20,586 nt of DNA. Source: a virus (lineage: Duplodnaviria; Heunggongvirae; Uroviricota; Caudoviricetes). A program made the translations under genes and the position numbers. Under the pieces are notes generated by a model. That model searched no databases. It worked only from the letters and a program-made list of their open reading frames with translations, and was not told the origin of the DNA. Of this stretch, positions 13,136-13,630 are shown in pieces (within the stretch, counting starts at the first letter, position 1; each line of letters starts with the position of its first letter). The DNA is taken from positions 1 to 20,586 of the IMG/VR virus record IMGVR_UViG_2563366976_000012; one strand, 5' to 3'.

Positions 13136-13630
13136 TTATGCTTGTTGGTCATCATTAATATCCGTTAGTTCATTCTCTAGAGGTAGATCTCCCGCACACC
13201 AAGCTATAAATTTTTCTTTGGTTGTTAAATCGTACTTAGTTGGAACACCAGCAAAAATACAGGCCCGAATGAAAGCCGCTCGTTCAAGTGATTTCCATGG
13301 ATTACTATCAGTATCTTGGATTTTTAAATACCTAGCTTGCAACTGATCTTCAGGAAGGGTATCAGACTCAATCAGCAGTCTTTTGTAATGCCTCGCTTGC
13401 TCTTTAGACATTCCAGCCTCTTGGCCAAACTGATAGACCAACTGAAGAACCGAAAGTACGGCAACAAACAAACCGAAAATAAATAAATTACTGTACGGGG
13501 CGAAAACTGAAAAACCGAGAACGATTAACATCAACGTTATTAATTTATCAATGCGAGTTAACAACGTGTAATTCATCTTCTCCAATACATAAGAGTAGTG
13601 AACATAAAATTTATAATCGTCTCTGGTCAT
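13136..13630 (-). CDS. Membrane protein (164 aa), oriented opposite to cI and the PL operon; possible SieB-like superinfection-exclusion/abortive-infection protein
   Basis: Two hydrophobic segments (LITLMLIVLGFSVFAPY, LFIFGLFVAVLSVLQLVY) followed by a charged C-terminal domain. AT-rich. Size and position resemble Rac sieB. SD spacing is suboptimal for both candidate starts. Confidence 0.45.
   Translation of the reverse strand: MTRDDYKFYVHYSYVLEKMNYTLLTRIDKLITLMLIVLGFSVFAPYSNLFIFGLFVAVLSVLQLVYQFGQEAGMSKEQARHYKRLLIESDTLPEDQLQARYLKIQDTDSNPWKSLERAAFIRACIFAGVPTKYDLTTKEKFIAWCAGDLPLENELTDINDDQQA

Follow-up and report, generated by a model that had tools for sequence, protein, structure and literature searches.

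A SLATT-like two-transmembrane gene with proline-rich mini-ORFs behind a sieB-type promoter in an Escherichia coli prophage: a candidate abortive-infection cassette

We analyzed a 20,586-nucleotide (nt) stretch of viral DNA (IMG/VR record IMGVR_UViG_2563366976_000012, positions 1 to 20,586; hereafter, the window), which represents an Escherichia coli lambdoid prophage adjoining mlrA/yehV and is 99.9% identical to prophages of several human isolates. The subject is a minus-strand open reading frame (ORF) of 164 amino acids (aa), lying between the cI-type repressor gene and the early-left genes and encoding a protein with two transmembrane (TM) segments (hereafter, the 2TM gene and the 2TM protein). 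We found that this ORF is a real, conserved prophage gene, and that it belongs to a cassette of ~900 nt consisting of a promoter/leader, a short upstream ORF (mini-ORF A), the 2TM gene, two further mini-ORFs (B1 and B2), and a terminator (Table 1). The cassette is best read as a portable prophage moron placed in the slot of sieB, its product being a putative abortive-infection (Abi) membrane effector that would be expressed in the lysogen under a small proline-rich partner; we regard this reading, which draws on analogy, as a plausible one, somewhat short of an even chance. Prophage exclusion genes in the sieB slot and SLATT effectors are already known kinds. What appears to be new is a stand-alone SLATT-like effector under a sieB promoter, its obligate proline-rich micro-protein partners, and the recognition of the sieB promoter as a widely shared socket for unrelated cargos.

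Table 1. Features of the cassette and its surroundings, in window positions
Feature	Position	Strand	Remarks
2TM gene (WP_001513551.1, PHROG 6315)	13136-13630	-	ATG start; 164 aa; SLATT-like two-TM membrane protein
sieB-type promoter/leader block	13752-13835	-	Homologous to the sieB upstream regions of P22, lambda and Rac
Mini-ORF A	13638-13727	-	29 aa, MDLCVDKYEERHVPLRQKPPVPPKPPKEN; stop 7 nt before the 2TM ATG; AAGGA Shine-Dalgarno 7 nt before its own ATG
Mini-ORF B1	13081-13155	-	24 aa, MMTNKHNPVHGHVPPKPKPPKPKK; overlaps the 2TM stop codon
Mini-ORF B2	12993-13061	-	22 aa, MSRPIEPFHIPPRPRPPDPGPK; AGGA Shine-Dalgarno in front
Intrinsic terminator closing the cassette	12943-12970	-	9-bp stem GAAGCGUCC/GGGCGCUUU, then U run (fold computation)
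PL-like promoter	12834-12862	+	TTGCCA-17-TAGATT; overlaps the OL operator copy; whole feature 12834-12866
cI terminator hairpin	12799-12830	+	13-bp stem, z -4.4 (fold computation)
cI-type repressor (HTH_3 + Peptidase_S24)	12152-12778	+	Rightward; convergent neighbour of the cassette
cro	11854-12054	-	Leftward, with a cII/YmfL-like gene also leftward
Early-left genes yfdP/Q/R/S, then xis and int		+	Beyond the cassette

A conserved prophage gene

The sequence-only reading that had first drawn attention to this ORF took the minus-strand frame to be coding, and the coding status was borne out. The protein matched PHROG 6315, which is catalogued as of unknown function, over its full length (E = 9e-64; residues 1-150 aligned to positions 2-151 of the 152-position profile). 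In Enterobacterales, 72 close homologues were retrieved, and the wider family comprises 230 cluster representatives at 50% identity, each of them a stand-alone protein of about 150-180 aa. Across 42 distinct sequences of the gene, the ratio of nonsynonymous to synonymous differences (pN/pS) was 0.26 in frame vs 1.16 and 1.79 in the shifted frames, with a synonymous divergence (pS) of 0.75. The DNA is AT-rich, as previously described (GC content of 0.38 over 13201-13600 vs ~0.5 in most of the window). Scans of the query protein against Pfam, NCBIfam, and PADLOC gave no direct assignment, and a tblastn search of 50,697 phage records returned five hits only, none of them in lambda or P22.

The plus strand contains an ORF that overlaps the 2TM gene (13035-13346; 103 aa, with an ATG start), and the earlier reading had allowed that this might prove to be the frame conserved in relatives. 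It matched no family, and the antisense frame was interrupted in relatives, the longest stop-free stretch varying from 46 to 107 aa. With strong purifying selection in the 164-aa frame, a 230-cluster family, and a confidently modelled fold (see below), the chance that this frame is open by accident, or that the plus-strand ORF is the real gene, is virtually nil, and the data already refute such a reading.

Membrane topology, fold, and affinity to SLATT effectors

Two TM helices and a charged domain had been predicted, and both are apparent: residues 30-67 (LITLMLIVLGFSVFAPYSNLFIFGLFVAVLSVLQLVYQ) are free of charged residues and form two hydropathy peaks with APYSN between them, and residues 68-164 (97 residues) include 12 basic and 17 acidic ones. 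An AlphaFold2 (AF2) model built from 35 close sequences reached a predicted local distance difference test score (pLDDT) of 77, and that from 115 diverse sequences reached a pLDDT of 94.9 with a predicted template modelling score of 0.87. The modelled fold is a long helical hairpin (H3-41, H49-66/68-88) with the TM pair at its turn, followed by four short helices, and thus has the SLATT core architecture of a helix, two closely spaced TM helices, and C-terminal helices. Giant-virus SLATT proteins headed the BFVD fold searches for both AF2 models (7 of the 10 and 11 of the 24 top hits), with Foldseek probabilities of 0.87-1.0 but E-values of only 0.03-0.6. The C-terminal domain has its own conserved positions, namely Q105, D108, P111, W112, and A146-G147-x-x-P150.

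Remote profile matches pointed in the same direction. When the 115 diverse members were scanned with PADLOC, 11 matched the CBASS 'Effector 2TM' model PDLC00712 (best E = 7.6e-5), three matched the RTasSLATT model PDLC03794 (best E = 2.7e-4), and three matched the RTasSLATT model PDLC03819; UniRef names two homologues SLATT. The curated SLATT models (Pfam SLATT_1-6 and DUF4231; NCBIfam SLATT_n) stayed below their thresholds, with SLATT_5 at E = 0.034 (1 of 35 close members), DUF4231 at E = 0.0095 (2 of 35), and NF033631 at E = 0.066, and none of the 115 diverse members gave a match at E <= 0.01. These profile and model comparisons suggest that the 2TM protein represents a SLATT-like two-TM effector family outside the curated models, which is a likeness and not a proven membership.

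SLATT effectors are predicted pore-forming toxins, and a SLATT gene is required for DRT10 defence (preprint 10.64898/2026.04.29.721553). The 2TM protein shares with the 2TM effectors of CBASS and the reverse transcriptase-associated SLATT proteins of DRT10/UG17 and DRT3 the N-terminal helix, the tight two-TM hairpin, the C-terminal helices, the small size, and the location in phage-conflict loci, in addition to the remote PADLOC matches of its family members. It differs from them in that it is stand-alone, has a proline-rich peptide of 24-50 aa as its partner in place of a cyclase, SLOG protein, or reverse transcriptase, falls below the Pfam/NCBIfam thresholds, and carries its own conserved C-terminal domain. 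If the assignment holds, such a stand-alone effector would raise the question of what triggers the pore without a nucleotide or cDNA signal.

A sieB-type promoter with exchangeable cargo

SieB, which stops superinfecting lambdoid phages from growing lytically (with Esc/sas for self-protection), has been known for fifty years, and the sieB genes of lambda, P22, and Rac are all opposite-strand genes within the PL operon. The position of the 2TM gene had been likened to that of sieB in Rac-type prophages, and the likeness extends further than had been claimed: the gene is oriented against the PL operon, close to the repressor gene, and the ~100 nt upstream are homologous to the sieB upstream regions. 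On the minus strand, the inferred -35 element (TTCCCC, 13787-13782) is separated by a 17-nt spacer from the inferred -10 element (TATTAT, 13764-13759). In the GenBank record of P22, positions 29690-29720 are annotated as the sieB promoter and 29727 as the start of the sieB RNA, and the alignment with these annotations predicts a transcription start near 13752-13756, with a 5' untranslated region of ~25 nt before mini-ORF A. The string TGTGCCTG(T)CTTTTAACCAC(A/G)TCAGGC..GGTGG is essentially invariant between this leader and the regions preceding sieB in P22, lambda, and the Rac prophage of K-12, and within the leader alignment the -10 element has an invariant T, A, and final T. Over the ~90 nt upstream of mini-ORF A, the mean pairwise nucleotide difference was 0.137 vs the pS of 0.75 in the gene.

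The protein behind this promoter is not SieB. The sequence-only reading, which had noted neither the mini-ORFs nor the SLATT-like affinity, had kept open whether it might be a strongly diverged one, and this did not survive profile comparison; its alternative, another exclusion or Abi determinant, is the reading that we prefer. PF14163, which matches lambda SieB at 1e-29, matched neither the query (E <= 1), nor the 35 close members (E <= 10), nor the 115 diverse members (E <= 0.01), and hhalign of the 2TM family gave probabilities of 0.13% against lambda SieB and 0.37% against P22 SieB; on these scans of 150 members and hhalign values below 1%, SieB identity was ruled out. The two systems share the slot, a homologous promoter/leader, similar size, and membrane anchoring, and by analogy the same logic would be expected of both, with expression in the lysogen and silencing or countering during the phage's own lytic growth. 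They differ in the absence of any sequence or profile similarity between SieB and the 2TM protein, and in the cassette having a coupled proline-rich mini-ORF between transcription start and main gene, plus downstream mini-ORFs; in P22, only 31 nt separate the sieB RNA start from the ATG.

The leader is far more widespread than the 2TM gene would suggest by itself: the 101-nt leader alone (window positions 13735-13835, minus strand) occurred in 2412 of the 5426 complete E. coli genomes (44%), and the 2TM gene in ~105 of the 5426. It mostly accompanies other cargo, namely unrelated 'hypothetical' proteins of ~170 aa that are neither SieB nor the 2TM cassette (in loci L089-L092, for example, the leader is at about 2501-2600). 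In other prophages, the same leader precedes, in the same slot and orientation, WP_000559922 and WP_000559928 (171 aa), WP_000500990 (170 aa), and WP_000559914 (173 aa), none of which is a Pfam SieB. Since the leader is homologous to the sieB promoter region, we read the cassette as a probable alternative cargo in a sieB promoter 'socket', and the slot itself looks like a cargo-exchange site; a description of it as such was not found in the papers searchable. One conserved promoter/leader would thereby drive no fewer than four unrelated cargos, namely SieB, the 2TM cassette, and two or three families of proteins of ~170 aa, so that the slot may be a cheap place to mine new prophage defence genes.

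Two other identities of the leader block were considered and rejected. As a structured RNA or riboswitch, it folds no better than shuffled sequences (z +1.2 for the window sequence), RNAalifold returned one 5-bp hairpin only, and Rfam gave no match; it is now read as a promoter region. Nor is it the small RNA KilS of Rac, which begins ~60 nt beyond the block; in the K-12 Rac prophage, KilS (L093, 2906-3003, minus strand) lies on the PL-direction strand, beyond the conserved block upstream of sieB.

Some details of the block deserve separate mention. A hairpin GCCUG-N13/14-CAGGC (DNA GCCTG/CAGGC) is located at 13826-13804, just upstream of the -35 element, and is retained through compensatory changes, as GCCCGG/CCGGGC in K-12 Rac (L093, 3063-3101) and as CCGG/CCGG in locus L077 (about 3660-3685); these two changes were read by eye, as MAFFT mis-registers the 5' arm when the loop length varies. 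The hairpin is outside the predicted sense transcript and may act in the leftward (PL-direction) RNA or as DNA. In addition, two direct boxes flank the promoter on the minus strand, one at 13768-13783 (-35/spacer) and the other at 13733-13748 (just after +1). They change in parallel by lineage, with CCCCAACAAC occurring twice in the window, CCCCTACAG twice in lambda, P22, and Rac, and CCCCAACAGTC twice in loci L029 and L052, a pattern that points to a shared ligand or to gene conversion. Within the first box, ACAAGGAU resembles the CsrA core.

Proline-rich mini-ORFs

Mini-ORF A is the most constant companion of the 2TM gene. Its equivalents (24-50 aa) end 2-20 nt before the 2TM start in essentially all of ~80 related loci drawn from IMG/VR, genomes, and phage records, and they are retained across 2TM protein identities from 26% to 100%. 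The consensus is ..YEE(K/R)H(M/L)PP..(R/K)P.PPPKP(D/E)n, of which (D/E)xH(M/V/I)PP is kept even at 26-37% 2TM identity (Fels-2, the Yersinia P2-like phage, a Providencia lambdoid phage, EKP1, and the loci of P0220, P0175, and P0221). Its pN/pS was 0.34 in frame vs 1.13 and 1.90 in the shifted frames, indicating that it is selected as a peptide.

The downstream mini-ORFs are of a second, basic type. Each locus of the close subfamily that we examined encodes one to three basic peptides of 20-30 aa, almost all with an AGGA-type Shine-Dalgarno sequence, and their core, H-x-P-P-x-P-R-P-P, showed a pN/pS of 0.47 in frame vs 1.42 and 2.06 in the shifted frames; distant family members have the upstream mini-ORF only. 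On the minus strand of the whole window, proline-dense stretches occurred at the three mini-ORFs only. The peptides had no annotation and no PHROG match, their strings were not found in a full-text literature search, and the protein collection contained only two fused variants of them, both unnamed. The cassette would therefore add unannotated, selected proline-rich micro-proteins of a kind that ordinary gene callers miss.

As a side observation, the frame of the proline-rich segment after the 2TM stop differs among close relatives. In Pectobacterium P0013 it extends the 2TM C-terminus as an in-frame fusion (..HIPPRPRPPAPPK), in Enterobacter P0002 it lies in a third frame, and in the window it forms the separate overlapping ORF B1.

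The arrangement, with a small gene that ends 2-20 nt before a larger one for a potentially membrane-damaging protein, on mobile elements, recalls two-gene toxin-antitoxin (TA) or Abi modules with a membrane toxin; the difference is that the partner here is a disordered-looking proline-rich peptide without a known antitoxin fold or DNA-binding domain. A second likeness is to proline-codon leader ORFs (mgtL/mgtP type) and proline-rich antimicrobial peptides (PrAMPs; apidaecin, oncocin), which are also short, dominated by proline codons, and have PPP and PPK runs that depend on elongation factor P (EF-P). The basic B-type peptides resemble the PrAMP core [YH]-[ILV]-P-x-P-R-P-P. Against this, the cassette peptides are made inside the cell and the likeness is one of low complexity, and no attenuator structure was found at the leader (folding of the leader, RNAalifold). 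With so many prolines, synthesis of the partner would rely to an unusual degree on EF-P and on the capacity for translation, which suggests, and does not show, a route for sensing phage-induced translation stress.

Antisense transcription from PL

The direction of the early-left transcript was derived from the operators. Three copies of the cI operator motif ACTAAG-N4-CTTAGT are present in the 20.6 kb, two at 12066 and 12115 (OR) between cro and cI and the third at 12845-12860, where chance would give 0.5 matches. As this third copy overlaps a promoter-like site directly 3' of the cI terminator hairpin, PL is predicted to fire rightward, antisense through the cassette. From PL, the distance to yfdP is ~1.3 kb, and this interval contains the 164-aa ORF in the opposite orientation; the earlier statement that the gene is antisense to the presumed PL transcript is therefore correct, with the operator and promoter on the plus strand and yfdP/Q/R/S downstream on the same strand. 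Between PL and yfdP (12867-14197, plus strand), a gene for an N-like antiterminator was not evident. The PL transcript would also have to pass through the cassette terminator, read in reverse complement, and an inverted repeat with 25-nt arms at 14062-14150.

A possible mechanism and its alternatives

On the preferred reading, cI would hold PL off in the lysogen, and the cassette would be transcribed from its own sieB-type promoter. The proline-rich protein encoded upstream would serve as a labile inhibitor or regulator, in an antitoxin-first, toxin-second order. When a phage disturbs the cell, the SLATT-like 2TM protein would oligomerize and permeabilize the inner membrane, thereby aborting the infection, so that the outcome of SieB would be reached through an unrelated protein. 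On prophage induction, PL transcription running antisense through the cassette would silence it. We infer the pore-forming abortive action by analogy with SLATT proteins, CBASS 2TM effectors, and the role of SieB.

Several points weigh against this reading. Every database name in the 2TM family is 'hypothetical protein', and the PADLOC scan of the query itself gave no hit. In the window and the annotated contexts, none of the usual companions of SLATT (SMODS cyclase, SLOG protein, or reverse transcriptase) neighbours the gene; in the contexts examined it is surrounded by ordinary phage genes for early functions, immunity, or lysis. The antitoxin role proposed for mini-ORF A is pure inference. 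Furthermore, Salmonella carries a distant homologue (158 aa, ~27% identical) beside sopE2 in every locus retrieved (L007-L010, 6001-6477). One 90%-identity cluster of this group comprises 1564 member sequences, and the homologue lacks the upstream proline-rich mini-ORF. It may be a domesticated remnant; nevertheless, a near-fixed copy without the mini-ORF fits a constitutively toxic protein poorly.

The same Salmonella copy suggests long-term tolerance of the protein and thereby favors non-lethal superinfection exclusion, in which an inner-membrane protein blocks DNA entry or an early step without killing, as P22 SieA or T4 Imm does. P22 SieA, a protein of small size in the inner membrane, prevents injection (PMC10883804), and the 2TM protein is likewise an inner-membrane protein from a prophage slot used by exclusion genes; SieA also has 164 aa and is encoded by a prophage on the strand opposite its neighbours. 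The sequences are nonetheless unrelated (hhalign 0.54%), which excludes homology despite the equal length, and topology and genome position differ as well. Because the fold and the remote hidden Markov model affinities point to suicide-type 2TM effectors, and a small partner so tightly coupled is more suggestive of control over a dangerous protein, we consider non-lethal exclusion unlikely. Many morons in such slots are not defence genes, and lysogenic conversion apart from phage defence, through effects on membrane or stress physiology, host fitness, or virulence, would accommodate both the near-core distant homologue beside the effector gene sopE2 and the lack of a hit of the query to a curated defence model. 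It accounts less readily for the promoter shared with sieB, the repeated placement in phage exclusion and moron slots, and the sparse occurrence in E. coli (~105 of 5426 genomes) that conflict genes typically show, and we judge it unlikely.

The mini-ORFs admit two more readings. The proline-rich peptides could themselves be the active agents, either targeting the ribosome or DnaK in the manner of insect PrAMPs or being exported like bacteriocins, with the 2TM protein as exporter, immunity factor, or release channel. The one to three basic peptides per close-subfamily locus, with their own Shine-Dalgarno sequences and under purifying selection, would fit such a role, and the acidic upstream peptide could neutralize them; however, distant members keep the upstream mini-ORF only, the peptides have neither export signal nor leader, similarity among low-complexity proline-rich sequences is weak evidence, and the searches made found no family record or literature, all of which renders this reading highly improbable. 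A translation-linked immune module is quite unlikely: here, one to four peptides would sense polyproline translation (EF-P/ribosome) or act on the ribosome or DnaK as an intracellular counterpart of insect PrAMPs, and would gate a stand-alone SLATT-like pore, with the sieB promoter as a shared lambdoid 'socket' for unrelated exclusion cargos.

Genomic contexts

In the commonest context, drawn with the cassette running from left to right, three opposite-strand early-left genes are followed by the cassette, the convergent repressor gene, and cro. The immediate downstream convergent neighbour was cI/S24-like in 38 of the 58 distinct contexts. The copies of the window, Klebsiella, and Providencia lie on the opposite strand of a lambdoid PL operon; those of EKP1, P0220, and P0221 are found in the opposite orientation between the genes for the antiterminator Q and the holin; and further copies lie inside a yfdP-type early-left operon. 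The early lytic operons of Fels-2 (186-like) and of a P2-like Yersinia phage also contain copies, and in both of these records the deposited annotation calls wrong-strand ORFs. Judging from these arrangements, the cassette appears to be a typical moron: self-contained, with its own predicted promoter and terminator, and directed against lytic transcription.

In Fels-2 (NC_010463), the mini-ORF and the 2TM homologue at 3860-4459 of locus L003 on the plus strand are unannotated (the homologue is at about 30200-30801 of NC_010463), and the record has the overlapping STM2733.1 and STM2735 on the opposite strand. The P22 record describes gene 17 as one that 'allows growth on phage Fels2 lysogen', and the Fels-2 cassette is one candidate, among other unassigned Fels-2 genes, for the exclusion of P22 gene-17 mutants. 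Nothing on P22 gene 17 and Fels-2, or on a sieB hotspot, was found in the papers searchable. In Salmonella prophages with the cassette between Q and holin, the DNA just 3' of the 2TM gene matches Pfam Ibs_toxin, a type I toxin (L086, 4336-4644; L087, 4585-4644), including a 19-aa ORF. In Yersinia phage vB_YenM_42.18 (L004, 3797-4462), a 221-aa annotated ORF lies opposite the 2TM homologue and is probably a miscall. Finally, the 'Elizabethkingia' phage EKP1 (L006) carries genes typical of enterobacterial lambdoid phages (DUF4222, Q, class II holin, and Rz), an odd set in view of the host stated for it.

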